A stretch of 64,000 bases of DNA, taken from Alphaproteobacteria bacterium (lineage in GTDB: Bacteria; Pseudomonadota; Alphaproteobacteria; CAAGCB01; CAG-977). Position numbers and translations under genes: made by a program. The stretch spans positions 1,392 to 65,391 of the forward strand of contig JAKSVT010000007.1 of the NCBI GenBank assembly GCA_024407875.1, given 5' to 3'. Positions within the stretch are counted from its first letter, which is position 1. Each line of letters begins with the position of its first letter. Under the pieces are notes generated by a model that was not told the origin of the DNA, ran no database searches, and saw only the letters and a list, made by a program, of their open reading frames with translations. Below are positions 34,597 to 63,740 of the stretch, in pieces.

Positions 34597-36870
34597 ATGC
34601 GCTTTTTGGTTTCTATAGTGTCTTTCTTTGTAATTTTGCTTACAAGTGTTAAAAGTAATGCCGAAGTAATTCCTATGACTTACGGAGATTTGGCTATATA
34701 TAAAGCTTTGCCAAAAAAAGAAAAACTTTCATTTTTAAGAGAATTTTACAAGAAGAATAAAGCTGTAGGTGCGACAGATGGTGAAATTTTAAATGAAATT
34801 GTTAAAATTGATGAGGTAAGAGATAATAAAATTACAAAACTGTTAGCAAAGCTTTCAAAACAAGCTGAAGATATAGATGACTATATTGATTTAGAAGTAG
34901 CTTTTATTAACAAACAAATTGAGAGTGTTCATCCCGATAAAGACAATATCTATGTTGATAAAAAAGATATAAAAACTTGGAAAAATATTAAAAATGTTGT
35001 ACCTGAAGGTCATCCGATTAAAGAATATTTTCATGAATTGTCTTCAAATAAAGGATATTCTAACATAATACGTGGAAAATTTGGAGATATTCAAATTATA
35101 TCATGTTCTTTATTAGATGATAAACAAGAAGAATTCTTTTCTGGAATATATTTAAAATTAAATGATGGGTACTATCTAAAGTCTAATGATGATAAGTGGG
35201 TTGATATAGATTTATCAAAATCAAAAAATTATGCTTTGCAAAAAATGTACTATCCTATGCCTAATTATATAAGGGAAGGTAAGTTTGTAGGTTATACTGG
35301 AGAATTTATAATTCCTTTTAAAGGGAAAATATTAAGTAAAGCAAAAGAGGTTTTAATTGATCCTAGTTTTAATTTTACTTTTTGTAAAGATGAGGAATGT
35401 TTTTCAGAAGATTTGCCAAATATAAATTACACTCCTTATATAACATCATTTCAACCAACAACTTGTTCTATGATTCAGCAAGAATATGTTAAGGTTCCAG
35501 AAAATAATAATTCAAAAATTAAGCTAATTACATCTAAAATTAGTAAAAGTGATAAAAGCCTCTATATTCTTATTGAAAACGATAATACTATAAAGCGTAA
35601 AGTTAACCTTTATATTATTGATGATTTACAATTGAAATTTGGTAAACCTGTAATTTCTATGAAAAATAATAAATTATTGTATAGATATACAATTTTAAAT
35701 TACGATGATATAGACCTATCAAAAGGTTTAGACTTTGCATTATACTTTGAACATCAAAAACTAACATCGAAAGTAGATGTAAAAGCTGAACTGGTAGATG
35801 TGTTTAAGTATAAGGAAAAATTTAATTTAATTAATTTTATGAAAATAGTTATTTTAGGAATTCCTTTCGTATTAATTACGCCATTTTCGTTATTTATTTT
35901 ATCGTTGTTTTTTATAAAATTATCTAATTCATCAGAAAATTCAGAAAACTTTTTTAATGGACTATTTGATAGTTTAAAAATTGCATTTCCTTTAGGTCTG
36001 TTCTTGTGCTATGTGCCTCAACTAAAAGATATGCTGTTCTTGAATATTGGTGTTATTAATATCTTTATGACTTTAACTTTGCTGTTTTTAATTTATTTCG
36101 TCAAATTTATTAATCACGTTAATCAAAATGAATGGACAGCTAGTTTCCAAAAAACAGGTTTTTATTTTGGAATTTTGTTTGCATGTTTGGTTTTAATTGA
36201 TCCTCAAGTATTTTTGTATGATTATATATACGATATTTTACAGGATAATATCCTTCTATACGGGTTATCTTTAATAATTCCTTTTGTTATAGGTTTGTGT
36301 TTTGTTTTCTTGGTTCCAGTAACTGCAAAAATTTCAAATAAATCGAGTTCTATTTTAAGAAAAATGGTTCTTTATCCTTTGATTTTTATGATAATTAATT
36401 ACATTTGTTTAATTATAATCAGAACAAATATTGCTATTGGACTAAGTGCTTTAATTGTAAATATTGTTATTGTTGTAGCTTGTTTTAAATTAAAAGATAA
36501 ACATATTGCTTTAGCACTAGGTTTGCTTCTCTGTGTGGGGCTGAATTTGCTTAAATTTGATAATGCAAATAACTTTGATGAGGCAATATTAACTAGTGAT
36601 AAAAAAGTTATAATTAGTGTCCATAAAAAAGATTGCTTTGCTTGTAAGCTCAATGATTTTTCAATAAATTATTTTGTGAAAAAACACCAAGTTGAAAACA
36701 ATAAATTTGAATTTGTTAAAATGGACTATGATTCAGAAATAGTTAAAAGCCTTTTGGGGGCATCTTTTTATAATCATCCTGTTATGAATATTATATTGTC
36801 TAATAAGGAAAAATTGATAAAGGTTGTAAAAGGAACAAAATTAATTTGGAATGTTCAGACATTAGAATAG
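34597..36870 (+). CDS. Large secreted/membrane protein with central multi-TM region and C-terminal CxxC thioredoxin-like segment, possibly DsbD-like (757 aa)
   Basis: Signal peptide. About 400-aa N-terminal soluble domain. About 8 TM helices containing single Cys residues. C-terminal HKKDCFACKL motif. Lies immediately upstream of the T6SS locus. Confidence 0.3.
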   Translation: MRFLVSIVSFFVILLTSVKSNAEVIPMTYGDLAIYKALPKKEKLSFLREFYKKNKAVGATDGEILNEIVKIDEVRDNKITKLLAKLSKQAEDIDDYIDLEVAFINKQIESVHPDKDNIYVDKKDIKTWKNIKNVVPEGHPIKEYFHELSSNKGYSNIIRGKFGDIQIISCSLLDDKQEEFFSGIYLKLNDGYYLKSNDDKWVDIDLSKSKNYALQKMYYPMPNYIREGKFVGYTGEFIIPFKGKILSKAKEVLIDPSFNFTFCKDEECFSEDLPNINYTPYITSFQPTTCSMIQQEYVKVPENNNSKIKLITSKISKSDKSLYILIENDNTIKRKVNLYIIDDLQLKFGKPVISMKNNKLLYRYTILNYDDIDLSKGLDFALYFEHQKLTSKVDVKAELVDVFKYKEKFNLINFMKIVILGIPFVLITPFSLFILSLFFIKLSNSSENSENFFNGLFDSLKIAFPLGLFLCYVPQLKDMLFLNIGVINIFMTLTLLFLIYFVKFINHVNQNEWTASFQKTGFYFGILFACLVLIDPQVFLYDYIYDILQDNILLYGLSLIIPFVIGLCFVFLVPVTAKISNKSSSILRKMVLYPLIFMIINYICLIIIRTNIAIGLSALIVNIVIVVACFKLKDKHIALALGLLLCVGLNLLKFDNANNFDEAILTSDKKVIISVHKKDCFACKLNDFSINYFVKKHQVENNKFEFVKMDYDSEIVKSLLGASFYNHPVMNIILSNKEKLIKVVKGTKLIWNVQTLE

Positions 36871-40253: not shown

Positions 40254-40268
40254 TATTTAATTTGTATG

Positions 40269-40327
40269 CCTTTGCTAGATAAGATCGTTTATAACGAAAA
40301 TTTCTAGCAAAGGATTTTTTTGTTTTT
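40269..40327 (+). terminator. Rho-independent terminator/attenuator after tssC
   Basis: An 11-bp perfect stem CCTTTGCTAGA (40269-40279) / TCTAGCAAAGG (40303-40313) followed by ATTTTTTTGTTTTT. Confidence 0.5.
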
Positions 40328-40362
40328 ATGTTTTGTTGTATAGGATTTTTTGTTCCTAATTC

Positions 40363-46476: not shown

Positions 46477-46770
46477 ATGCCAACACCAGTTGCTACTATT
46501 GCTAATTTAACAGCTACAGGAGATGTAATCGTCGGACCAGGTGGAATTACTACAATGGTTAAAGGATTGCCTGTTGCTTGTATGGGAGATGCTGTTACTG
46601 GACCTATGTGTATAGGAGCAATTACGATGACTACTGCCTTAAACAAATTAGCAAAAGGTCGTCCAATTGCAAATTTAGGTTCTATGGTTACAGGTATAAA
46701 TCCTGCTGCTTTTGGAGCTCCAATGGCTACGGCAGTTGCTGTTTGTCCTAATGTTAATGAGATTGTTTAA
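46477..46770 (+). CDS. PAAR-like spike-tip protein (97 aa), atypical
   Basis: Three P-x-A/C-x-x-G repeats (LPVACMGD, GPMCIGA, RPIANLGS) in a small hydrophobic beta-rich protein, located between clpV and vgrG. Confidence 0.5.
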   Translation: MPTPVATIANLTATGDVIVGPGGITTMVKGLPVACMGDAVTGPMCIGAITMTTALNKLAKGRPIANLGSMVTGINPAAFGAPMATAVAVCPNVNEIV

Positions 46771-46831: not shown

Positions 46832-48028
46832 ATGAACTCAAATGAAAATGAATTATTAAAATTATCTTTTGTTGATAAAAAATTAGAAGATTTTTATTTA
46901 TATAATATCGACTTAGAGGAAAACCTTAGTTTTGATTATAAAGCTACTTGTATCGCTTTGTCTGAAAAGCCTCATACAGTTGAGGAATTAAAAGAAGTTC
47001 TTGGATTTAAAGCAGACATACAAATTATTCAATTTGATGAACGTCAAAATTCAAGAAAAAGATATTTATCAGGTGTTGTCACATCAATTGAACATTTAGG
47101 ACTTTTCTGCAGATTAGAAAAATCTGAGGTTTTTGCATATAAATTTACTGTTGAACCTCAAGTTGCTGTTCTTAAAAATGTTATAAAGCTACAAGCTTAT
47201 AACAATACTAATGTTTATGATGTTATTAATGAAGTTTCTCAACAATATGGGTTAGGCTTTATTTTAAACGAAAATTATATTTTAAAAGATGATTACATTC
47301 CTAAATGTAATTATAATCAAAATGAAGTATCAACATACCATTTCTTAAAAGAAATTTTTGAAATGTATGGCCTATCTTTATGCTATAATCATTCTAAAGA
47401 TGCTACTCAAGTATTTGTTACAAATGGAAACAAGGTTCCAGTAGCTTCTGCTCTTGAGTTTTCTAAGGGTAAAGATGACGTTGAAAAACCTTATAATATT
47501 GATTTATACAAGTATAAAAATGATGATGATGCTAATTTGTTGCATATGGATCAATGGAATATGAAAACTTCACTTGGAGTTGATGGTGTACGTTTGTTAG
47601 AAACATATCCTAATTCGAATGTAAGTGGAGAAGAATGGAAAACAAAAGGCTTTGAGGATAAGAAAAGATTTGTTGAATATACAAGACATTTCCATATGTA
47701 TGCCTATGGATGCACCAAAGAAGAAGTTGATAAAGATGTAAAAACTATATTAGAAGCTCAACAAAGAAGAAATGATATTAATAAAGATTTGTGGCAAGGA
47801 AAAGCTTCAAATATAATGTTAATGCCTGGTAGATTAATAAAAGTATTTCATGCTTATTCCAATAAAGACAATAGTGCTTTATTTGCTCTGATTAATAAAA
47901 CACATTTAAATGTTTATGCTAGATTCCCAACTAATTTAGCTCAATTGGTAGATCTAGAAAAATCAAATAAATTTGAAGTAAGCATTGAAGCAATGAATTA
48001 TAGTGAAGAAAAGAGATTTGTTGGATAG
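46832..48028 (+). CDS. vgrG: VgrG N-terminal half (gp27-like hub domain) encoded as a separate ORF (398 aa)
   Basis: VgrG/gp27-like blocks (RYLSGVVTSIEHLG, VYDVINEVSQQYGLGFI). Ends with tandem TAG TAG stops (48026-48031) in the same frame as the downstream gp5-like ORF. Confidence 0.7.
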   Translation: MNSNENELLKLSFVDKKLEDFYLYNIDLEENLSFDYKATCIALSEKPHTVEELKEVLGFKADIQIIQFDERQNSRKRYLSGVVTSIEHLGLFCRLEKSEVFAYKFTVEPQVAVLKNVIKLQAYNNTNVYDVINEVSQQYGLGFILNENYILKDDYIPKCNYNQNEVSTYHFLKEIFEMYGLSLCYNHSKDATQVFVTNGNKVPVASALEFSKGKDDVEKPYNIDLYKYKNDDDANLLHMDQWNMKTSLGVDGVRLLETYPNSNVSGEEWKTKGFEDKKRFVEYTRHFHMYAYGCTKEEVDKDVKTILEAQQRRNDINKDLWQGKASNIMLMPGRLIKVFHAYSNKDNSALFALINKTHLNVYARFPTNLAQLVDLEKSNKFEVSIEAMNYSEEKRFVG

Positions 48029-48040
48029 TAGGAGTTTTTC

Positions 48041-50581
48041 ATGAATTTAAAAGAAATGATTGTTTGCGGTGTAAACGGAGAAATTTCAGGAAAAGTTAGT
48101 TCACAAAAGGCAAATGATAAATTTTCATTCTATGCAAAGATTGATGATAATCAAAAAAATCCTTTTGTTATTAAATACATGATGCCAGTTGGTGGTGTAA
48201 CCAATGGGCTATATAGATTTCCAAAAGTAGGAGAAAAAGTTTTAGTATCAGAAGAAGGCGAAACAAGATATTTAATGGGATATCTTCCTAATTCTTTAAG
48301 TCAAGATTTTGATACAACTAATGAAACTGATACAGCTTATAAAAATGAAGGATTAGTTTTACGTTATAAAAAATCAGGCTCTAATAATTCAAATAAAGAA
48401 TATTCAGAGATTGGTTTTTATTCTAAGCAAAGTGACTTTTTAACGTCTCCAACAGAATTAAAAGATGAAAAAACAAAAATAAAGAAGATAATTGAAGATG
48501 ATTATGAGTATTATGTAAACACAAAAGACCCGTTGATTGCAGAGATAAGAGCTAATACTAAGAAAAATTTGGATAAATTTGGTCAACGTTCGAACGATTT
48601 CAATTTAGATCCTTTAAAAGGGGCGTTTGTTAATGCTCTTGTTGATTATAAAGTAGGGAATAAGATTGCAACTCTAAATATGGATAGTGTGGAGCTTTAT
48701 TCTACGGGAGATATTCAGTCAAAAGCTCAGAATATAAACGAATTGTTCGGCCAACGTTTATCATTAAGGTCTTCTTTCTTAAATGATGAAAATATACATA
48801 TAGACGATAAAGCAGTTCCATTAAAGAAAGATTTAAAAACAAAAGGTGAACTTTTAAAAGCAAAATCGAAAGAACTTATTTCAATTGAAAAGGAAATTGA
48901 AAAACTTCAAGAAGAGAAGTATGAGAAAAAGCAAAAGAAAGAGAATACAAGCAATATCGATAGTGCAATAAATACTAAAGTATCAAATTTAGAAAAATTA
49001 GGAGAACAATATAACAATTTAAGTAAAGAGATTGCTAAGCTCAAAAATGATATCAAATCAAAGAACGGAAAAAATATTCAGTTGTTTGATTATAGAAAAT
49101 CTGATGTAACAAAAGGTAGTATAGCAATAGTAGCCGACAATGAAATTTCGATAAATGCTAGGTCTGGAATTACTTTATCTGTTGGTGCTATAAAACTAAA
49201 GATTTCTCCGACGGGTGTTGATATTACATGTAATAGGGTAAATGGTGTAGGTAGAGGTGTTTTTGATAGTACTTTTAGTATGAAGCAAAATGGTTCTGTT
49301 TTGCTAACAGGTTCTACTGTAGGTATTTCAGGAACAAGATCTGTTTCAGTTGGAGATGGATTAGGCGGAAGATTATCTACAGAATTAGGAAACGTTGATA
49401 TAAAAGGTGGTTCAATATCAACTTCTACACAGAGTGCTTTTGTGATGACACAAAACTTAGCATGGTATCTTAATGACTTTGCTCATCAAATCACGGCTCT
49501 TTGTGAAAGTAATCCTACTAGATCATGGGCAAGAGATGTAACTGCAGATAGTTCTTGGGGGGCTGCTTTAAAAACAATTAAAAAGGTTATTGGTGTAGCA
49601 AATAAAGTTGCTCCTACAGGAGCCAAAACTGCAAACAATGATGTTAGACATGAAGCTATGGATGCAGTATCAAGATTAATCTCATTAATGTTAATAATAT
49701 TAGATAATGTTAAAAATGTTTTGATTGAAAAGAAAGTTAATAACAAACTAGCTATTAATTATAATCTCGAAACAGGAAAATTTAATACTTATGACAATAG
49801 ATTTGATTATGAAATGGCATTCGCTGTTTGTGAAGCTACGCTAATAACAACAATTATGTCATTGACAATTCTTTCTGCTAAAGAGGCTTATTTTCATCAA
49901 GCTTCTATTAAATATACTCAAGCCGGAAGTTTAGTTTTAGACTCTAAAGGTTATTATCAAGATTCTATACTAGCAAAAACAGCTAGAGCTGTACTTGCTG
50001 GTATTGCTAAACTTCAAGCTAAAAAGGAGGCTCATGATTCTAATAATGGTAATCCTGCTTTAACCAATGAAGAGGAGGAGTTCCTCAATAATCATAGAGA
50101 AACTAATATAAACGATAAAAAGACAGCATACGAAACTGCTCTTATTGAAGAGAAAAAAGCAGAAGATGATTTTAAAGCAGATCCTACTAATGCTACTAAA
50201 GAAACTGCTTATAAGAATGCTCTGGCAGAACGTAAGAGAAAAGAAAGAGAATATAGAGAGGTTAACAAATACCATGGAATAGTAGCAGGTGAAGATTATT
50301 ATTTAGGAAGGACTTTGTATAAGTCATATCAATTAGAAGGGGATGTTGTAAATGGATATACTGTTAAATGGGGTTCTATTTCAGATATAATTAAAAATGC
50401 TAAAGAAAGAGATGATGATGGTAATGAGTTTACAAATCGATTCACACAGTTAAATAATACTACTGCGATTTTAGGCTGGATTAATGATGCAGCAACTATA
50501 TGGGGGGCTTTCTCTTTAGCTTATTGTGATTACTATAATGTGATAACTCCTGAAACAAGGTCTAAATTAATTGAATTATAA
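48041..50581 (+). CDS. vgrG: VgrG C-terminal half: gp5-like OB-fold, coiled-coil insertion, beta-helix repeats, and ~380-aa uncharacterised C-terminal extension (846 aa)
   Basis: RFPKVGEKVLVSEEGETRYLMGYLPN is the gp5 OB-fold signature. Later GSIAIVADNEISINARSGITLSVGAIKLKISPTGVDI beta-helix-like repeats. AGGAG RBS 6 nt upstream of the ATG. Confidence 0.7.
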   Translation: MNLKEMIVCGVNGEISGKVSSQKANDKFSFYAKIDDNQKNPFVIKYMMPVGGVTNGLYRFPKVGEKVLVSEEGETRYLMGYLPNSLSQDFDTTNETDTAYKNEGLVLRYKKSGSNNSNKEYSEIGFYSKQSDFLTSPTELKDEKTKIKKIIEDDYEYYVNTKDPLIAEIRANTKKNLDKFGQRSNDFNLDPLKGAFVNALVDYKVGNKIATLNMDSVELYSTGDIQSKAQNINELFGQRLSLRSSFLNDENIHIDDKAVPLKKDLKTKGELLKAKSKELISIEKEIEKLQEEKYEKKQKKENTSNIDSAINTKVSNLEKLGEQYNNLSKEIAKLKNDIKSKNGKNIQLFDYRKSDVTKGSIAIVADNEISINARSGITLSVGAIKLKISPTGVDITCNRVNGVGRGVFDSTFSMKQNGSVLLTGSTVGISGTRSVSVGDGLGGRLSTELGNVDIKGGSISTSTQSAFVMTQNLAWYLNDFAHQITALCESNPTRSWARDVTADSSWGAALKTIKKVIGVANKVAPTGAKTANNDVRHEAMDAVSRLISLMLIILDNVKNVLIEKKVNNKLAINYNLETGKFNTYDNRFDYEMAFAVCEATLITTIMSLTILSAKEAYFHQASIKYTQAGSLVLDSKGYYQDSILAKTARAVLAGIAKLQAKKEAHDSNNGNPALTNEEEEFLNNHRETNINDKKTAYETALIEEKKAEDDFKADPTNATKETAYKNALAERKRKEREYREVNKYHGIVAGEDYYLGRTLYKSYQLEGDVVNGYTVKWGSISDIIKNAKERDDDGNEFTNRFTQLNNTTAILGWINDAATIWGAFSLAYCDYYNVITPETRSKLIEL

Positions 50582-52529: not shown

Positions 52530-53186
52530 ATGAAACATATATTCTATTTGTTGTTAATAAGTACTGTTATGTTAACGGGGTGCTATACAAAATGTGGAAT
52601 GGTTGCAGGCTTTGCTCCTAAACTAAAATCTTCTTATTCAAATAGATATCCTACGGTAGAACTTGATTATATGGCTATAACAGAGGATGAAGCCGTTGAA
52701 TTGTCGAGTATTTCTGTTGAGGAATATTTTTCTTTTTCTCAATTACGTAAATCTTTAAATCCATATACTATAGTTTTATCTTCCGAAGAAACAGAACCTC
52801 AAGAAATGCTTACAAAAGTTGATAATTGGGATAATTGGTTAGATAAAAACCCTGAAAAAATAGCTGTTGTTGTTAATATTCCAAAATTGGTTCAAAAAGA
52901 AAAAACAGATAAAGATAAAAACAAAGATAGTCGTCTTTTAATATATCCTTTAAAGAAAAGCTGGTTTTCTCCAAGAACGGATTATTTAGAAATTCGTCCT
53001 GGAAATGTTATAAAAATAGCTACTAGACCTGTTGATCCTGAAGCAAAAACCAAGAAAATAGCAAAACAAGAAAAAGAAGATGCTATTAAGAAAGCTGAAG
53101 AAGAACAAAAACAAGAAGAAATTAAACAAGCTGAAGAACGTAAGAAAAAGCGTAAATGCAGAAAAGTTAGATGTAAAGTAATGTAA
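52530..53186 (+). CDS. tssJ: TssJ-like outer-membrane lipoprotein with polybasic Cys-containing C-terminal tail (218 aa)
   Basis: Lipobox LLISTVMLTGC. Located directly upstream of tssK-tssL-tssM (conserved tssJKLM order). Unusual C-terminal KKKRKCRKVRCKVM. Confidence 0.5.
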   Translation: MKHIFYLLLISTVMLTGCYTKCGMVAGFAPKLKSSYSNRYPTVELDYMAITEDEAVELSSISVEEYFSFSQLRKSLNPYTIVLSSEETEPQEMLTKVDNWDNWLDKNPEKIAVVVNIPKLVQKEKTDKDKNKDSRLLIYPLKKSWFSPRTDYLEIRPGNVIKIATRPVDPEAKTKKIAKQEKEDAIKKAEEEQKQEEIKQAEERKKKRKCRKVRCKVM

Positions 53187-55425: not shown

Positions 55426-58400
55426 ATGGATAAGTCTTTAGCTGCCGTAAAGAATGTTAAAACTCCAGATTTATCATCCATTCCAACATGGATGTATTGG
55501 GTAATTGGTATACTTGTTGCCGTAGTTCTTATATTTTTAGTTGTTTTACCATTTCTTAGAAAAATTCGTCGCAAACAAATTAAAGTAAAAGAAACTACAG
55601 AAATCAAAAAAGATTTGATGATTTGGCATCACCTTGCTCAGTTGGTTAGAGGTGGATCTGCACATCAAAAAGCAAAGAAAGTTTTGTCTGATCAAATAGC
55701 AAACATCGATATAGCTTTTGAAAAAGGTATGAAGATGTTGTCTGATCACAACAGAAATGTTAATAATCAACCGTGTTATTTAATTGTTGGCGAACCTATG
55801 AGTGGTAAGTCAACATTGCTTCGTAATAGTGAACAAGAATTAGTTGTTTCAAAAGAAGAAGAAAGAGACGAAGAAAGTAATAAGGGGGAAGCTCTTCGTT
55901 TGTGGATGGGAGCCAAATCTTTAACTTATGATATTGGTGGTCATATTTTCTTCGATAGATGGATGGAAGGCTCTAGTGCTGAATGGAGCTATATTGCAAA
56001 GATAATTTCTAAAAAACGTCGTAAAAAACCTCTAGATGGTGTTATTTTAACTATTCCTGCTGACGCTTTATTAGCCGATGATGATGGATTAACACAACAA
56101 AAAGCTGTTTTAATGTCAACAGAATTAGGTCAATTATTGCATACTTTAGGTATGTATATGCCTTGTTATGTAGTTGTTACTAAAACAGATATGGTTAACG
56201 GCTTTAGTGAATATATGATGTCCATTGCAGAAGATTTGCGTTCTCAAATTTTTGGATGGGTAAATGATGATCCAAAAGCAAGATATGATGTAGATAAATT
56301 TAATATTTTCTGGAAAGACTTGTTATATAGATTGCGCAAAGGTTGTGCTAAAAACATGATTTCCAAAAACGTTACATCTCGTTTGACAGGATATGCAAAC
56401 AAAATGGAAATCAATGGTAAAATATTCGTATTTCCTGATAACTTTGCAAAAATGTATAAAAACATATCTACTTATCTAAAAGCTATTTTTGGCGAGGGTA
56501 ATTATTATGGTGCAGGAAACGCTTTGTTTGAAGGCTTGTTCTTCACATCTGCTGTAGAAGGTGATTTTACATTAAGTCCGGATTTAGCGATGATTTGCGA
56601 ACAAAAAATTGATGATATGCCAGTTGTGCATGAACATAAAATGAATTCAAAACCTTTATTTATTAAAGATTTACTTCAAAAAGTAATATTTAAGAATTCT
56701 GTTAATGCTGCATTCACACAAGTTAAAAAAGCAAAATTAAATATACCTAAATATGTTGCATGTTTTTGTATGCTTTTAATTGGAGGATTGTGGGCTTTTA
56801 GAGGAGTTTCTAAAAATGTTGATTTTGAAACAGCCTTACAACCAAAAATTTTATACTTGCAAACTTTAACTGACATGATGAAAAGTGGGGGTGTATTTAA
56901 TTCTCCTCTTATAAAGAAAACTGAAGAAGGTCAATATGTTTTGAATTCAGATCCTGTTGAAAATATGGATATTTCAAGACTTCATTTCTTCTTTGAAGCA
57001 TTTACAGAAAGAGAATCAAAAATTGTAGCACCGTTTGGCTTTAAATTAGCAAGTCTTTTTGTTTTTGGTTTTGAAAAGAGTATGGGATATGACGATTTTG
57101 CTATAATTATAAACCAATTGTTTGGCTTTATGATTAGAACTCCATTAATTAAATTAGTTGGAGACAAAATCGATTCTGAAGGAACAAATGCTCATTTAAC
57201 TGTAAGGAAAAAAGGGGCTGTTGCATCTTATTCTTTATTAAATGAAGTAAGATTTGAAGATTTTACAGATTTATTTGCTGATAAAAAGGCTTTTGATGTT
57301 TCAAACATGATGTATTATTTAATGCCTGAAATTTCAGCAGATACTATTAATATCTTAGATGCTTATTTGCCTCAATATGATGAAAAGTATACAGGAACAT
57401 TTGATTCAACATATCTTTATACTGAAGATTATTCTAGATCTTTAAAAAAAGGTGTTTCTTCAATATTAAATTCTTGGAATGATTTAACAGCATATCCAAG
57501 TAGTTCTTTTTCAAAAATTAGAACATTAATCAAGAATACTAGACTTTTAGAAAGCTCTTATGCTGATATCAATCACCGTGTAAATGTTATGGAAAGTGCT
57601 CAATCTTTAGAAGAACTTACACAACAAATTAATTCTCTTGTTGATTTATTAAAAGAACAAGAAAATCGTACGGAAACTATTATATTAACATATAAAAACT
57701 TACTTTCTTTAACGGATACAAAGAAAATCGATGTTTCTAAAGAAGAAAGTAAATCTATGGGAACAGAAGATTTAGCTGTTAGAATGTTGTTAAATAAAGC
57801 TACTGACGAATATAAGAATCATTTAAAAACAGACTTTTCTTTCTTAATAGATAACGCAGATGAATTATCTTCAGAAGAATTTACAGTTTCTGATATTCGT
57901 AAATCATTGCCTAGAATTAGAAAAAATATCTTAATAGAGATTGACGCTAAGAAAAAAGAAATGAGTAAAGGTTTAAATGACTTTAGAAATAAACCTTTAT
58001 TACAATGGCAATTTGTTGAAAAAGAAGGTGCTTCTAATTATACCTATCATATTCTTTATGATGGCTATAAATACTTAGATAACCTAGAAATTCCTACACG
58101 TGCTAAATTGCTAGAAAATGATTTTAGAACAAATTGGTCTAGAGCAAATAGATCTATTCGTGATGTTAATGCTGATTTTGAAGATTTTATGGAAATTTAT
58201 TCTAAGAGTGAAAATTTAAAACCTCAATTAGATTTAATGAAACGTGTTTACGATTTGTTCTTTGCTTTAATTAAGTATTCAATTGTTGATACAGAATTAT
58301 CTAAACTTCCTGAAACTGTAAGCGAGTTGTATAGTTATGTCGAACAAAAATCTGAAGAAAATCAAGTATTTGGATTTACAGAAGATTTAGCAAGAGAAAC

Positions 58401-59802
58401 TATGGGAGACTTACGTTATTTGAAAGGCTATGATCCTAAGGAATTTAGTAAAACTTTAGGGGATTTGTTTAAGTTCGCTCACCAAATTATGAATGCACAA
58501 AAGTCAAAAACAGACAAAAATAATGAAAAAGATAAACAACAACAAATTTCACAATTGTTTACTAAGGAATTCCAACATTACAAAAAATCTTTAGAGGTTT
58601 TTGAAGGATATTTGGATGATTATATTCGTTATTGGGGTGGATATTCTGATCGCGTATATGTTCCAGCAAAAGATTGGCATGAATTTAAGGTTCGTTTGAA
58701 GGTATTAAAAGCTTATAAGATTAACTCGTTATTACAACAAGTTTATTCTCAATGCTTAACTATTTTGAAATCAGTAGATGAATCTTTGATTTCAGATCAC
58801 TTGAAGCAAAAGAAGAAAGCTTTATTAGATTTGTTAAGTGATAAAATTAGTATCATGACACCTTTGTTTACAGATGCTGGTGAAAAGACTTTGTTAGGAT
58901 GGTCTGAATTACCAAACAGTTCTGAACAAGCTTGGGAGCAAATTTCTTCAACTTCAGATGCTACATTAAAAGAAACGTTGTTTAACGTATATTCAAAGAC
59001 ACCTCGTAGTAAGATTTCTTGGTGGAATGAATTTATTGATAATGGTATTGCTCTTTTAAAACATGAAAATGAGAAACGTATTGAAAATAATTATGTAGAT
59101 TTAATTAAGTCTATGAATATGTTCCCATTATGTAAGAATTGTCAAACAAAGGGTGTTATTAACGTTAATGATATGAAGAAATTAACTACATTACTTTCTT
59201 CTAGTGTTTCTGTTCCAAAAGCAAAAGAAGACGAAGAAAGCGGTAATGATAGTAAAGAAGAGTTGTTTGATAGAAAACTTAACTTGTTTAAAGATTTGAA
59301 GACAATTGATTGGGCAAAAGAAATCTTAACAGTTGCAAAGCAATTACAAAATACCAAAAAGCCTTTGTCTTGGACTTTGTATCAAGCAGGTGTTGAAAAT
59401 CAAACAGGTTTATTAGAAGAAAATGAACTCTCTGCAATTAACAGATTCCGTTATGTTGAAGTTGTAACTGGTAAAAAGACTAAACGTTATAGCACAGCTG
59501 CAATGAAAGATAGTGCAATCGGTAGAGGTAAAGCTGAAGATAAGTTGATTATTAACTTCTATAAATATTCAACAGATACTAAACCTGAGATTTCTTTGAG
59601 ATATAACACCACTTGGGCTATCTTTAAGATCTATTTGGCTAATGGTGCTATTTCTGATCCTGCTGAAGATAAAGTTTATATTCCTTTGAATATTGTTGAT
59701 AAAGACGGCACAAAGTATAAGTATTTTGTAACTGTTAAATTTAACAATGAAATCTTAAAAGCGGATGAATGGCCAACCAAGAAGAATTGGAATAAAAAAT
59801 AG
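55426..59802 (+). CDS. tssM: Type VI secretion membrane protein TssM (IcmF family), 1458 aa
   Basis: N-terminal TM helix, Walker A GEPMSGKST, a later TM segment (YVACFCMLLIGGLWAF), and a large C-terminal periplasmic domain. Start overlaps the tssL stop. Confidence 0.9.
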   Translation: MDKSLAAVKNVKTPDLSSIPTWMYWVIGILVAVVLIFLVVLPFLRKIRRKQIKVKETTEIKKDLMIWHHLAQLVRGGSAHQKAKKVLSDQIANIDIAFEKGMKMLSDHNRNVNNQPCYLIVGEPMSGKSTLLRNSEQELVVSKEEERDEESNKGEALRLWMGAKSLTYDIGGHIFFDRWMEGSSAEWSYIAKIISKKRRKKPLDGVILTIPADALLADDDGLTQQKAVLMSTELGQLLHTLGMYMPCYVVVTKTDMVNGFSEYMMSIAEDLRSQIFGWVNDDPKARYDVDKFNIFWKDLLYRLRKGCAKNMISKNVTSRLTGYANKMEINGKIFVFPDNFAKMYKNISTYLKAIFGEGNYYGAGNALFEGLFFTSAVEGDFTLSPDLAMICEQKIDDMPVVHEHKMNSKPLFIKDLLQKVIFKNSVNAAFTQVKKAKLNIPKYVACFCMLLIGGLWAFRGVSKNVDFETALQPKILYLQTLTDMMKSGGVFNSPLIKKTEEGQYVLNSDPVENMDISRLHFFFEAFTERESKIVAPFGFKLASLFVFGFEKSMGYDDFAIIINQLFGFMIRTPLIKLVGDKIDSEGTNAHLTVRKKGAVASYSLLNEVRFEDFTDLFADKKAFDVSNMMYYLMPEISADTINILDAYLPQYDEKYTGTFDSTYLYTEDYSRSLKKGVSSILNSWNDLTAYPSSSFSKIRTLIKNTRLLESSYADINHRVNVMESAQSLEELTQQINSLVDLLKEQENRTETIILTYKNLLSLTDTKKIDVSKEESKSMGTEDLAVRMLLNKATDEYKNHLKTDFSFLIDNADELSSEEFTVSDIRKSLPRIRKNILIEIDAKKKEMSKGLNDFRNKPLLQWQFVEKEGASNYTYHILYDGYKYLDNLEIPTRAKLLENDFRTNWSRANRSIRDVNADFEDFMEIYSKSENLKPQLDLMKRVYDLFFALIKYSIVDTELSKLPETVSELYSYVEQKSEENQVFGFTEDLARETMGDLRYLKGYDPKEFSKTLGDLFKFAHQIMNAQKSKTDKNNEKDKQQQISQLFTKEFQHYKKSLEVFEGYLDDYIRYWGGYSDRVYVPAKDWHEFKVRLKVLKAYKINSLLQQVYSQCLTILKSVDESLISDHLKQKKKALLDLLSDKISIMTPLFTDAGEKTLLGWSELPNSSEQAWEQISSTSDATLKETLFNVYSKTPRSKISWWNEFIDNGIALLKHENEKRIENNYVDLIKSMNMFPLCKNCQTKGVINVNDMKKLTTLLSSSVSVPKAKEDEESGNDSKEELFDRKLNLFKDLKTIDWAKEILTVAKQLQNTKKPLSWTLYQAGVENQTGLLEENELSAINRFRYVEVVTGKKTKRYSTAAMKDSAIGRGKAEDKLIINFYKYSTDTKPEISLRYNTTWAIFKIYLANGAISDPAEDKVYIPLNIVDKDGTKYKYFVTVKFNNEILKADEWPTKKNWNKK

Positions 59803-59822: not shown

Positions 59823-62800
59823 ATGATTATTAAATTACATAGACTTAGAGGAAGATTTTTAGCATTATTATTAGTAATGCTGTCTTCCAATGTCTATGCT
59901 CAAGATTGTAGTAATTCAAACAATATTTGCGGAAAAATAGCTAATAATCCAAGTCTTATTGATAGTGGCTATGAAGTAGATACTTTTTTAAAAGTAAAAG
60001 AACTAAAAGCAAATTTAGGAAATATATATGGCGCCTTTATATATAATAACAAAATGGAAGATGTTAGTGTTAAGCCTGGCACAGGAGTGGCTTTGTTTGG
60101 ATTAAGCGCAGATGTTTCTAAATTTGAAATTGGTGCAGCAAATATTCAAGGTGGGCTTTTATATAATTCAGGTAGTCTAAATATAGTAAATGGTTTTGAT
60201 TTTATAAAAAATGAAGATAAATTTTTTATAACTTCTGCTAGATTGTTAGAAGGTGGATATTTATATAATTCAGGAAAAATAAATAACAATGCTCCTAAAT
60301 TTAAATTAAATTCTAATGTTTTATCTAATGGAGATGTTCACGGAGGATTTATTTATAATTCAGGGACAATTAATAACGTTTCTTTTGATGCAAGTGTAGC
60401 AATTACTGATAAAGTTATATTAGTTCGTGCGACAGGAAATTTATTAGGTGGTGTTGTTTATAATACGGGTACAATAACTAATGTAGGTGAAGAAACTAAA
60501 AGTGTAGTAGCACAGTCAAATACAGCTTCTGCTATAGGAGGATTTATTTATAACGAAGGTACATTAGTAATTGATTCAGATTTGATAGCCAATCAGGTTA
60601 AAGCAAATTCAGGAAGTGGTTTTGGCGGAGCTGCAGCAAATGATGTTGGTGTTCTTACATTTAAATCTAAATCATTCAAAAATAACGCTGCATATGCTAA
60701 TATAAATTCATATGGTGGTGCTATATTTAATGGTAAAGTAAGTTCTGCTAAAGTTGATAAAGGTAGAAAAATTGAATTTGATTATCAAGGTGGAGATACA
60801 ACTTTTGAAAATAATTTTGCTCAAGCTAATATAGGAGCTGCTTATGGCGGAGCTATTTTAAACAGTACAGATCCTGCTGACACTACTAAGATTTATACAG
60901 TTGATTTTAAAGGTAAAAAATATATATTTACACAGAATTATACAGAAGCTAAGGTAAATTATTCTGGAGGTGGGGCCATCTCAAATGATGGAATTATAAA
61001 CTTTAATAGTACAGGAATCTTGGAATTTACCCAAAATTATTCAATAAGTAATAATAATAAACCACAACAATCAAATAAAATTGTTGCATCAGTTACTGCT
61101 TCTGGTGGAGCTATTGATAATGATGGAAATATTAATTTTGCTTCTAGCGTTACAAATGTAAATTTTTCAAAAAATTATACTAAAGGTTATGCTGCTTTTG
61201 GTGGAGCTATGTCTTCTGATAAAAGCATAAAAAGAGGTGTGATAACAACAACCATAAGTACAATTTTTAATTTCGAAGAGAATTATGCTTCTGGTTCTGA
61301 ATTTGCCTACGGTGGCGCTATTGCAAATACAGGAACAATTAGCACTTTAAAAGGTACTTTTTCAAAAAATTATGCTGATGCAGGGAAAAAAGCCTATGGT
61401 GGCGCTATTGCAAATGTTTCAGGCTCAATAACTTTTGAAGATACAAATTTTGAATATAACTACGCAATTTCTAAAGATGTTGCGATGGGTGGTGCTATAT
61501 ATAACGAAAACGGTAACATTATTATAAAAGCAGTAGGAACAGACGTGCTTTTTAAAAATAATTATGTTGTTGGAAAAAATTCAGTTTTTGGTGGAGCTAT
61601 ATACAATAACAAAGAAATACAGTTATTACCAGCAGCTGATAAAAGTATAGGATTTTCAGTTTGGGAAGGAAGCACAGATTCATTAAAAGACAAGGGAAAA
61701 TTTACTACAAATGATATTTATAATGATGGCGTTTTGAAACTAGGCGACGCTAAAAACAGTTTTTCTGGTTCGATTAGTTTTTATACTGATGTTTTGGGAA
61801 ATGGATCTATAGAAGTAAATGGGGCAAATGTTGTTATTAATGATGTTAAATTTAATCAGAAAAATTTAACTATAAATTCAGGTTCTGTTTTAGCATCATT
61901 AAAATCTTTTAATATTTCTAATACTATTGTTAATAATGCTAGTTTATCACTAAATGGAATAGGTGTGATAAATAACATATCAGGTTCAGGAACTTTAACT
62001 CTTACACCTGAAACAAAATCAGATAAAAAAGAAGAAAACAAAATTACTATTAAAGGAAATATAGGAAACAAAATTGTTGTTAGCGGTGCTGTTGGAGGAG
62101 CTACAGATCCTGTTAATGTATATAACGAAGGAACTATTCTTAACGATTTGACGATAAAGAGTGGCTCTTTATATAATAAAAATATAATCCAGGGGAAAGT
62201 TGACATAAAGGCCAATGCTTATTTAGTTGTTAACGGTAATTCAAAAATATATGGAGATATTTTAGGTGAAGATGATTCAACGCTTGCTGTTTTAGAAAAA
62301 AATAACTTGTTTAAGAATAATCAAATAAATGTTTCTAATGCGATTTTCGATCATGCTTATGCAAAGATTGATACGAACGATTTTTTCATAAAAAATAGTT
62401 TTGTTCTTGATTCTGAACTTGATTTTATTAATAAAGAAATAACAACTTCTAAATTTGAAAATATATTTTTTCAAAACGCAAATTTTGCAATAGATGTGGA
62501 TTTAGAAGAATTAGAAATGGACCAATTTTCTATTGGTAGTTTAAGTTCTAGTTCTGTCAGCAGTCGTTTTATTATTTCTAATGTTAATTTGATGACAGAT
62601 ACAAAACAAGAATCTGTAACTATTCCTTTGTTTGTTGATACAGATCAGGCTGTTTTAAATGCTTTAAAAAACAAAGTTTCAACTAATATTAAAAAGCCTA
62701 TTTATTCAAGAATATATAAATATGATGTTTCTTTTGTAAATAATAGCACAGATTTGCTTTTTAGACGTTATAAAGGAAACAAACCTTCAGATTTTAACCC

Positions 62801-63740
62801 ATATACATATTCAAATGTGGTAACAGCGCAATCTTTAATGTCCTTACAAACAAATATTGCTAATACAGCAATGGCTGCGTTAGATACTGTAACTTTTAGT
62901 ATGAGTTCCTCTAAAATATCCGGATTAAATGGTGGAGATGAGGAAGAAAATGAACCTTTAAGATTAGGTAATAGTTGGTATAAGCTTATTGGGTTTAATG
63001 AAGATCTTAAATTTAAAGATTTTGAAAATGTAAAATCCAAAACAGGCTCAATAATTGCTGGTATAAATACTGAAGATATCGAAATCGGCGACGGAGATAT
63101 GTTGTTTGGTGCCTATGTTGGTGGTGTTTTGGGTAAGCAAAAATATACGAATAATGAAAACTCTCAAAAGGGTGCATATTTTGGTCTTAACTCTTCATTA
63201 TTCTACGATCAATTCTATATTCAATCCAACTTTACTTATGGTTTTGTAAAAACAGACAATAAGAATATGTATGGAACAGATAAAATTGATTCAACATGGT
63301 ATAATGTAACTTTAAAAACGGGGTACAATATCCCTTTGGATGTTTTTGAAAGATGGACATTACAACCAAATTTAGCATTCGGACTTACAAGAGTAAAAAC
63401 CAAGGACTATACTTCTAAATCAGGAATAAAATTTGAGCCTGGTAAAAGTAAAGCTTATAATATTGATCCTGGTGTAAAACTCTCAAGAGAAATGAGTGAA
63501 AATTGGCATTTCTTTGCAACGTATAAACGATCATATATCAAGAATAAAAGTAAAGAAACTGTAGTTGATAAAGATGTTTATTTGCCTAAGTTAGCTCTCA
63601 AGTCTTATAAAGAAATTGGGGCTGGTATAGATGTTGATTTGAATGAAGATTGGACAATGAATTTAAATGTTAACCATAGGTCCGGAGATATTGAAGGATG
63701 GAATGGCAGTTTAACATTTAACTATTATTTCTCTCTATAA
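59823..63740 (+). CDS. Autotransporter with polymorphic-membrane-protein (Pmp)-like GGA[ILV]/FxxN repeats (1305 aa)
   Basis: Signal peptide (LALLLVMLSSNVYAQD). At least 12 repeats of GGAI/GGFI-Y/F-N-x-G-x-I (for example GGAIYNENGNIIIK, GGAIANTGTIS). C-terminal ~280 aa has alternating amphipathic strands ending ...SLTFNYYFSL, consistent with a beta-barrel translocator. Only 20 nt downstream of tssM. Confidence 0.75.
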   Translation: MIIKLHRLRGRFLALLLVMLSSNVYAQDCSNSNNICGKIANNPSLIDSGYEVDTFLKVKELKANLGNIYGAFIYNNKMEDVSVKPGTGVALFGLSADVSKFEIGAANIQGGLLYNSGSLNIVNGFDFIKNEDKFFITSARLLEGGYLYNSGKINNNAPKFKLNSNVLSNGDVHGGFIYNSGTINNVSFDASVAITDKVILVRATGNLLGGVVYNTGTITNVGEETKSVVAQSNTASAIGGFIYNEGTLVIDSDLIANQVKANSGSGFGGAAANDVGVLTFKSKSFKNNAAYANINSYGGAIFNGKVSSAKVDKGRKIEFDYQGGDTTFENNFAQANIGAAYGGAILNSTDPADTTKIYTVDFKGKKYIFTQNYTEAKVNYSGGGAISNDGIINFNSTGILEFTQNYSISNNNKPQQSNKIVASVTASGGAIDNDGNINFASSVTNVNFSKNYTKGYAAFGGAMSSDKSIKRGVITTTISTIFNFEENYASGSEFAYGGAIANTGTISTLKGTFSKNYADAGKKAYGGAIANVSGSITFEDTNFEYNYAISKDVAMGGAIYNENGNIIIKAVGTDVLFKNNYVVGKNSVFGGAIYNNKEIQLLPAADKSIGFSVWEGSTDSLKDKGKFTTNDIYNDGVLKLGDAKNSFSGSISFYTDVLGNGSIEVNGANVVINDVKFNQKNLTINSGSVLASLKSFNISNTIVNNASLSLNGIGVINNISGSGTLTLTPETKSDKKEENKITIKGNIGNKIVVSGAVGGATDPVNVYNEGTILNDLTIKSGSLYNKNIIQGKVDIKANAYLVVNGNSKIYGDILGEDDSTLAVLEKNNLFKNNQINVSNAIFDHAYAKIDTNDFFIKNSFVLDSELDFINKEITTSKFENIFFQNANFAIDVDLEELEMDQFSIGSLSSSSVSSRFIISNVNLMTDTKQESVTIPLFVDTDQAVLNALKNKVSTNIKKPIYSRIYKYDVSFVNNSTDLLFRRYKGNKPSDFNPYTYSNVVTAQSLMSLQTNIANTAMAALDTVTFSMSSSKISGLNGGDEEENEPLRLGNSWYKLIGFNEDLKFKDFENVKSKTGSIIAGINTEDIEIGDGDMLFGAYVGGVLGKQKYTNNENSQKGAYFGLNSSLFYDQFYIQSNFTYGFVKTDNKNMYGTDKIDSTWYNVTLKTGYNIPLDVFERWTLQPNLAFGLTRVKTKDYTSKSGIKFEPGKSKAYNIDPGVKLSREMSENWHFFATYKRSYIKNKSKETVVDKDVYLPKLALKSYKEIGAGIDVDLNEDWTMNLNVNHRSGDIEGWNGSLTFNYYFSL

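Follow-up and report, generated by a model that had tools for sequence, protein, structure and literature searches.

VgrG spikes in a type VI secretion system (T6SS) are usually single gp27-gp5 fusions, and what diversifies them is either a C-terminal toxin domain or bound cargo. In this study, we analysed a 64,000-nucleotide stretch of DNA from an uncultured gut alphaproteobacterium (assembly GCA_024407875.1, contig JAKSVT010000007.1, positions 1,392 to 65,391; hereafter the window, with a G+C content of about 30%). The window contains a complete T6SS cluster, and an 846-aa open reading frame (ORF) of this cluster is the gp5-like needle half, consisting of an OB fold and a predicted beta-helix, of a VgrG that is encoded by two genes. 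This protein, here called the spike, belongs to a distinct and uncharacterised spike family. The conserved novelty of the family is a hydrophobic helical tail, a C-terminal motif, and two dedicated partner genes, which encode a small protein and a DUF6931 protein.

Among the described systems, canonical VgrG/TssI, as represented by Pseudomonas aeruginosa VgrG1 (PA0091; 4mtk/4uhv), resembles the spike in having an OB fold and in lying in a T6SS cluster with PAAR; the beta-helix that comes after its OB fold is, in the spike, a predicted one. VgrG1 was the best structural match of the spike, and fused relatives exist in the spike's own family. Unlike canonical VgrG, the spike has a separate hub gene, a predicted beta-helix of ~110 aa, two helical insertions, and a hydrophobic helical tail of ~200 aa. 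In the phage hub/spike pairs (P2 gpD and gpV, Mu gp44 and gp45, T4 gp27 and gp5), the Phage_GPD hub and the Phage_base_V spike are also separate. These pairs differ from our locus in several respects: the insertion in the spike is a coiled coil and not a lysozyme, no phage record matched in sequence, no apex domain was detected in the spike, which has a hydrophobic helical tail, and the genes lie in a T6SS cluster with TssJ/K/L/M-type genes.

A polypeptide added past the beta-helix is a feature that the spike shares with the evolved VgrGs, such as Vibrio cholerae VgrG1-ACD and VgrG3, P. aeruginosa VgrG2b, and Burkholderia VgrG-5. The C-terminal domain of VgrG-5 is implicated in membrane fusion and is the nearest functional analogy to the spike tail. 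Unlike those of the evolved VgrGs, the module on the spike has no recognisable enzymatic or toxin domain and is constant in the family, and the genes found with it are two conserved partners instead of an immunity gene. T6SS effectors that target membranes have also been described, including Tde1 with its glycine zipper (PMC10240207) and pore formers such as Ssp4 (PMC12669606). The prePAAR/Eag, Tde1, and Ssp4 systems resemble the present one in that hydrophobic, transmembrane-like helices are placed on a secreted T6SS component and dedicated small partners are encoded next to it. They differ in that no sequence or fold similarity was found and in that the module lies on the VgrG needle, not on PAAR or on a cargo effector; the Eag/DUF1795 chaperones are unrelated to the small protein and the DUF6931 protein. 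Our literature searches turned up no account of a split VgrG that has small-protein and DUF6931 partners.

A VgrG encoded by two genes

The spike ORF runs uninterrupted from 48041 to 50581 on the forward strand and is 100% identical to MJ247_03235, a hypothetical protein of an uncultured Alphaproteobacteria metagenome-assembled genome (MAG). The spike module consists of the following genes.

46477..46770, +: PAAR-like tip protein, 97 aa, which starts the spike module (Pfam PAAR_motif E=3.4e-5, under the gathering score)
46832..48028, +: gp27-like hub half of the split VgrG, 398 aa (Phage_GPD E=1.2e-13, aa 34-354)
48041..50581, +: gp5-like needle half of the split VgrG, 846 aa
50597..50989, +: small partner protein, 130 aa
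51022..52200, +: DUF6931 partner protein, 392 aa, soluble

No Phage_GPD match was obtained in the 846-aa ORF with Pfam; the domain sits in the separate upstream ORF at 46832-48028. The stop codon of this gp27-like gene is followed after 12 nt by the ATG of the spike, and an AGGAG ribosome-binding site lies 6 nt 5' of this ATG. When the gp27-like protein was compared with the VgrG model TIGR03361, only profile positions 7-316 of 513 were matched. The equivalent of VgrG is formed only by the gp27-like and gp5-like genes together. The order of PAAR, gp27-half, and spike was repeated at 10 other loci belonging to two phyla. A frameshift artefact was considered as the origin of the split and was rejected: a ribosome-binding site of its own precedes each gene, and the two genes are also separate at the 10 other loci. 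Because of the AGGAG site before the spike ATG and this recurrence, we regard the split VgrG as real.

The assignment of the spike as the needle half was examined in its relatives. Several of them, 950-1218 aa long, carry a fused Phage_GPD domain. In one such VgrG (P0056), which has both Phage_GPD and Phage_base_V, aa 414 pairs with M1 of the query just past the gp27 domain, and the OB-fold domain of the query aligns with aa 414-550. Phage_base_V itself matched aa 36-73 of the query with E=0.0076 and 17 bits, under the Pfam gathering score of 23.8, and matched 13 of the 59 members of the spike family, with a best E of 6e-5. Furthermore, an AlphaFold2 (AF2) monomer model of the spike was built with 59 sequences and had a mean predicted local distance difference test (pLDDT) value of 66.8. 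The top Foldseek matches of this model in the PDB were VgrG1 (4mtk/4uhv), Pvc8, and Afp8, with a probability of 1.0 and E of about 1e-3; the alignment to VgrG1 extended over ~450 columns with a template modelling score of 0.15-0.19 for the monomer model. From the Phage_base_V matches in relatives, the alignment with the fused relative, and the Foldseek matches, we therefore assigned the spike as a gp5-like needle half. This agrees with a preliminary description of the locus, made from the letters and ORF translations, which had recognised the gp5-like part of a split VgrG and, on either side of the beta-helix, additions that are not canonical; the peptides quoted there were also found in the protein.

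A fused VgrG was also found in a related T6SS, whose TssC is 79% identical; a DUF6931 protein comes after it, and the small protein is missing there.

Insertions and C-terminal extension of the spike

The spike was divided into the following parts according to the alignment of its relatives and the AF2 model.

48041..48310, +: OB-fold domain, aa 1-90; Phage_base_V at aa 36-73; conserved motif PxGG..G..R.P.VGEK
48311..48439, +: conserved strand block b1, aa 91-133 (R108-Y109, YSEIGF); invariant or near-invariant columns; AF2 strands 105-110 and 121-130
48440..48667, +: helical insertion 1, aa 134-209, query-specific; occupancy in relatives 0.21-0.24; AF2 helices 137-208
48668..48772, +: conserved strand block b2, aa 210-244, with STGD at 221-224; occupancy 1.0
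48773..49096, +: insertion 2, aa 245-352, with a Lys/Glu-rich coiled-coil hairpin inside; AF2 helices 259-298 and 304-343
49097..49426, +: predicted short beta-helix, aa 353-462; conserved Gly/Asp columns; Foldseek matches VgrG1, Pvc8, and Afp8
49427..50002, +: helical tail core, aa 463-654, family-conserved, ending in ...LAG (A653, G654); from the trimmed-tail alignment
50003..50470, +: hypervariable spacer, aa 655-810; occupancy 0.37-0.49, 11% identity
50471..50578, +: C-terminal segment, aa 811-846; weakly hydrophobic helix and ...KLIEL-COOH

Between the OB fold and the beta-helix, the preliminary description had placed a single coiled-coil insertion of ~250 aa. We found instead two helical insertions, at aa 134-209 and 245-352, with conserved strand blocks between. 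The OB-fold domain (occupancy 0.90-0.97), both strand blocks, and the strand-rich region of the predicted beta-helix (occupancy 0.99-1.0; 8 short strands in the AF2 model) are kept across the relatives, and S221, T222, G223, and D224 of block b2 are invariant in the close ones. Both insertions are essentially missing from the relatives, with an occupancy of about 0.2; the close relatives skip from query position ~268 to ~353 within 4 residues. The coiled coil is confined to aa 259-343, where AF2 predicted an antiparallel hairpin with pLDDT 85-92. This region contains 25% Lys and 14% Glu, and its second helix shows heptad periodicity (p=0.002). Insertion 2 was not found in any other protein by the protein database searches, and when the insertions and the spacer were compared with the window by tblastn, neither a donor nor a duplicate sequence was found. 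In T4 gp5, the lysozyme domain sits between the OB fold and the beta-helix, and thus an insertion at this site is not alien to gp5.

The extension past the beta-helix comprises aa 463-846, or 384 residues. It had been described as a ~380-aa region without a recognisable motif, which was correct for the region after the beta-helix; it is not one domain, as had been assumed, and is instead a composite of three parts. In all family members, the beta-helix is followed by at least ~190-250 aa. About half of the extension, aa 463-654, is constant throughout the family, which does not fit the proposed effector bolted onto one particular VgrG.

This constant part, the tail core, has an occupancy of 0.88-0.94 in the relatives and ends in a ...(S)P-L-A-G motif. 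It is also the most divergent of the conserved parts of the spike, with 15-24% identity. The tail of the query has a hydrophobic helical hairpin of two helices, at aa 539-562 and 593-611, with Kyte-Doolittle values of 1.47 and 1.82, respectively; in the relatives, two to three hydrophobic 19-mers with values of 1.6-2.6 were observed. The AF2 model has a beta-hairpin connecting the corresponding helices, 538-569 and 587-612. A conserved acidic residue lies inside each of the hydrophobic helices of the tail core. In termite-gut spirochaetes, the hairpin module was observed at three loci (L004:1578-3625, L023:31-1615, and L027:4308-6263) as a separate ORF of 147-162 aa before the small protein, much as a cargo counterpart of a fused effector would be. 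At these loci the spike itself extends only past the first tail helix, where it ends within low-complexity sequence. Because it occurs as a separate ORF there, the hydrophobic hairpin module can be regarded as autonomous.

The second part of the extension is a hypervariable spacer. The preliminary description had pointed out a basic/acidic patch here (aa 688-748). This patch is a helical hairpin, predicted with pLDDT >90, and the place of the spacer in paralogues is empty, Pro/Gln-rich, or occupied by a Lys/Glu coiled coil of up to ~300 aa. Two paralogues, P0006 and P0064, have only aa 663-727 of the query spacer in common with it, and the spacer shows distant similarity to "TAY" coiled-coil repeats of two paralogues. 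A further stretch of the spacer, aa 749-810, is Tyr/Gly-rich, has pLDDT <50, and is without homologues.

In the third part, L843 and L846 are invariant in close relatives, giving a terminal ...L-x-E-L-COOH motif. About 36 of the 59 family members end in ELEAL, LKEL, or LRSL, and a Gly/Ala-rich hydrophobic helix precedes this end. This third helix, which corresponds to the segment at aa 811-846, is Gly/Ala-rich and transmembrane-like in many relatives.

Helical spacers at three insertion hot spots (aa 134-209, 245-352, and 655-810) thus make up most of what had attracted attention in the preliminary description, and they are lineage-specific. Most likely, the sequences at these variable sites are tolerated surface decorations or spacers and not catalytic domains.

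Subsequently, the spike was searched for a toxin, enzyme, or plug fold. No toxin or enzyme family was found for the query with Pfam and NCBIfam, and no toxin or enzyme domain was found with Pfam in the 59 family members, including those with tails of 400-570 aa. The same was the case when phmmer and a profile of the tail were run against all PDB sequences. A separate AF2 model of aa 455-846 had a mean pLDDT of 61.7. The Foldseek comparison of the extension that had been recommended was run with this model against PDB and BFVD; it gave nothing at E<=1e-3 and no enzymatic or toxin fold. The best suggestive matches were the alpha-pore-forming toxins AhlB and SmhB, with E>1 and a probability of about 0.1, and the query had no Pfam match to a known pore-former family. 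Exhaustive phmmer with aa 463-846 against 1.84 billion representative proteins yielded 8 proteins, all of which belonged to the same family and matched at the same position; aa 742-846 were unmatched by any of these 8. Because phmmer matched only its own family, the extension is not a mobile toxin domain common to other delivery systems. Accordingly, the enzymatic or toxin effector domain that had been suggested as a candidate was undetected in the query and its 58 relatives by Pfam, PDB profiles, Foldseek, and phmmer. The preliminary description had also named a structural extension such as a DUF2345 transthyretin-like plug as the opposite outcome; in Pfam, the query was without such a match at E<=1, and DUF2345 matched 5 relatives among the 59 family members.

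Partner genes, relatives, and the surrounding cluster

A scan of species-representative genomes yielded 28 loci, whose hosts are uncultured rumen or human-gut Alphaproteobacteria, or termite-gut Treponema and Spirochaetaceae. When the ORFs were labelled with profiles, the order in these relatives was PAAR, gp27-half, and then one to at least five repeats of spike, small protein, and DUF6931 protein. Most of the 28 loci carry such triplets. At L001:1151-18631, L003:1-15737, L009, L006, and L017, two to at least five triplets are arrayed in tandem, with a small protein of 130-150 aa; the arrays with a visible start have one PAAR gene and one gp27-half gene ahead. In the window, a single triplet occupies this position. 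The synteny of one alphaproteobacterial locus is that of the window, except that four triplets lie between its gp27-half gene and the lipoprotein and TssK genes. No match of the spike was found in phage and plasmid collections by tblastn.

The small protein was found after the spike at 26 of the 30 labelled loci. It consists of a variable N-terminal hydrophobic helix and a C-terminal part of ~65 aa that is rich in Ala, Glu, Thr, and Gly. This C-terminal part (…SETEGKLSKDGVSAQ…RTKAGASDIEAKALKIT) is nearly invariant between Alphaproteobacteria and Spirochaetia, and the mean column identity of the small-protein alignment was 67%. The small protein had no relative in Pfam, NCBIfam, or PDB. The possibility that the 130-aa protein is a detached piece of a VgrG beta-helix was rejected, as hhalign against a fused VgrG (P0045) gave a probability of 0.05%.

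The 392-aa protein matched Pfam DUF6931 with E=4.7e-22 in two stretches, namely the N-terminal part and aa 235-333, with a variable helical insert of ~135 aa between them. There are 354 DUF6931 homologues of ~380-420 aa, all of which are hypothetical. In 30 sequences from two phyla, 57 columns were invariant, and the invariant positions include His, Cys, Asn, Asp, and Arg. DUF6931 had no PDB relative, and no toxin family was found for it in Pfam and NCBIfam. Within an array, the DUF6931 paralogues have 50-60% identity to each other and keep the same invariant residues. The only mention of DUF6931 found in the literature was in a Pseudovibrio preprint, which noted its conservation next to vgrG and PAAR and gave it a passing "putative immunity" label.

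Two further DUF6931 proteins were observed. A homologue of 559 aa, encoded beside a fused VgrG (L002:11682-13361), has the same layout with a longer Lys/Glu-rich insert; it was considered as a fusion of the small protein and DUF6931, which was rejected since the small-protein profile was unmatched. A second DUF6931 paralogue of the same MAG as the window (P0161; L033, MJ247_05210), which is 50% identical, lies on another contig, of which 1.2 kb was available, and suggests that at least one further spike triplet exists elsewhere in the genome.

Next, pairwise identities were averaged over 25 distinct triplets. The mean was 52% for the spike N-terminus (130 aa), 30% for the spike tail (last 250 aa), 37% for the N-terminal helix of the small protein, 70% for its C-terminal 85 aa, and 62% for DUF6931. 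The identity of the tail correlated with that of the small-protein N-terminus (r=0.54) more strongly than with that of the spike N-terminus (r=0.28), and the hydrophobicity of the small-protein helix tracks that of the spike tail. A search for a cognate immunity gene among the two downstream ORFs had been proposed. Neither has the character of a typical immunity gene: both are more conserved than the spike and follow every paralogue in two phyla.

The rest of the T6SS cluster was identified by Pfam and NCBIfam scans, which found TssA, B, C, E, F, G, ClpV, PAAR, K, L, and M around the spike. The genes 5' of the spike module are at the following positions.

37090: tssA
38211: tssB
38766: tssC
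40363: tssE
40904: tssF
42679: tssG
43737: clpV

The DUF6931 gene is followed on its 3' side by the genes for a lipoprotein, TssK, TssL, and TssM. The first of these (52530-53186) encodes a 218-aa protein that has a lipobox-like N-terminus (…VMLTGC) and a basic, Lys/Glu-rich, Cys-containing C-terminus; it occupies the place expected for TssJ before tssK and had no family match. A 230-aa ORF is in the equivalent place at L003. The TssM homologue (55426-59802) is long (1458 aa), and the TssM/IcmF models matched only its N-terminal ~460 residues; the unrecognised remainder is presumably the periplasmic part. No hcp was found in the cluster or among the other scanned ORFs of the window. The gap between tssC and tssE is 110 nt (40254-40362), and the related L002 cluster has hcp exactly there (L002:4060-4560). 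The cluster is flanked by an ORF of 1305 aa on the 3' side of tssM (59823-63740) and one of 757 aa on the 5' side of tssA (34597-36870). Neither had a Pfam match, and the 1305-aa ORF was also without an NCBIfam match; they could be effectors or accessory components.

Possible roles of the tail

An effector-like, membrane-active role of the conserved hydrophobic tail is possible. In the reading that we tentatively prefer, the tail would be a membrane-inserting, pore-former-like module, and the spike would carry it into the target. In the producer cell, the hydrophobic helices of the tail would pair with the variable hydrophobic helix of the adjacent small protein, and the DUF6931 protein would handle the complex as a chaperone or loader, possibly via the C-terminal motif. 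The small protein may alternatively serve as an immunity protein. One hub gene combined with several needle/partner triplets would give interchangeable needles on a common hub, as the hub and triplet arrays of the relatives suggest. Taken together, we infer a membrane-inserting tail on the spike, pairing with the small protein, DUF6931 as a loader, and interchangeable needles, and to this combination we give slightly less than an even chance.

Several points weigh against this combination. The case for membrane activity comes only from hydropathy and architecture. The confidence of the AF2 models was modest (mean pLDDT 62-67, with about 60-80 in the tail core), and the Foldseek similarity to AhlB and SmhB was insignificant at a probability of about 0.1. 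The hydrophobic helices of the query are among the weakest of the family, and its third helix has Asn and Asp; an obligate trimer that buries such helices in its core would explain them equally well. Because the triplets duplicate as units, the co-variation statistics are confounded. Moreover, no gene with the usual features of immunity is present at the locus, and a large C-terminal tail may interfere with the capping of the beta-helix by PAAR.

A more far-reaching form of the preferred reading is a modular T6SS spike, in which one hub would take interchangeable needles, each with a polymorphic membrane-inserting hairpin effector, a small transmembrane partner acting in immunity or chaperoning, and a DUF6931 protein that recognises the ELExL tag as a loader. 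Pore-forming or translocon modules borne on the spike would then form a new class, and we consider this rather unlikely. If it were so, the target may be protist or host membranes rather than bacteria, because the hosts of these loci are rumen and termite-gut symbionts.

The tail might instead be structural, forming a trimeric cap or plug for the short beta-helix or a dock for the baseplate or the membrane complex. Its partners would then be assembly chaperones or accessories, the coiled coils would be spacers, and nothing would be toxic. That no toxin fold was detected is expected from such a tail, as is its constancy in the family, which is unlike that of variable cargo; DUF6931 and the small-protein C-terminus are highly conserved over two phyla in the manner of core components, and DUF6931 also occurs 3' of the fused VgrG in the related T6SS and, according to the preprint, by vgrG and PAAR in Pseudovibrio. 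A trimeric bundle would also be expected to hold hydrophobic helices in its core. However, the tail is the most divergent of the conserved parts and is present in several divergent copies per genome, which is unusual for a simple plug, and the module can be a separate ORF. The acidic residues in the hydrophobic helices and the Gly/Ala-rich, transmembrane-like helix are more membrane-like than a coiled-coil core. We regard a structural tail as a serious alternative on the unlikely side. A docking platform, in which the tail and the C-terminal motif would recruit DUF6931 as the delivered effector and the small protein would be an adaptor or immunity protein, so that each needle paralogue loads its own DUF6931, seems unlikely to us. 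The order of spike, small protein, and larger protein does resemble vgrG-adaptor-effector cassettes, the conserved end of the spike resembles a docking peptide, and the invariant His, Cys, Asn, Asp, and Arg positions of DUF6931 are compatible with a catalytic site. On the other hand, the array paralogues are 50-60% identical, and near-identical cargo would be delivered repeatedly; variability is highest in the spike tail and the small-protein helix, not in the supposed cargo, which is without a detectable toxin family or fold relative. Nor was a separate immunity gene seen alongside.

In the preliminary description, aa ~470-846 were taken to be the enzymatic or toxic effector of an evolved VgrG, with its immunity protein encoded by a downstream ORF. 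The position past the beta-helix is indeed where evolved VgrGs carry effectors, and aa 749-810, with pLDDT <50 and no homologues, leave room for a small novel domain. The results given above had already disfavoured this model: aa 463-654 are constant in the family, aa 655-748 are a helical spacer that is partly homologous to the coiled-coil spacers of paralogues, and a toxin or enzyme match was absent by every method used. Conservation of the downstream genes exceeds that of the spike, and they follow every paralogue whatever its extension. We consider an effector of this kind highly improbable.

For this protein, the coiled coil and much of the extension are lineage-specific spacers rather than a concealed enzyme. 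Uncultured Alphaproteobacteria of the gut and termite-gut spirochaetes, in which the T6SS is almost unexplored, are the only bacteria in which the system was found. If the tail is membrane-active, it would be a means of diversifying the piercing tip itself, and it would provide the first functional context for DUF6931 and for a new family of small proteins.

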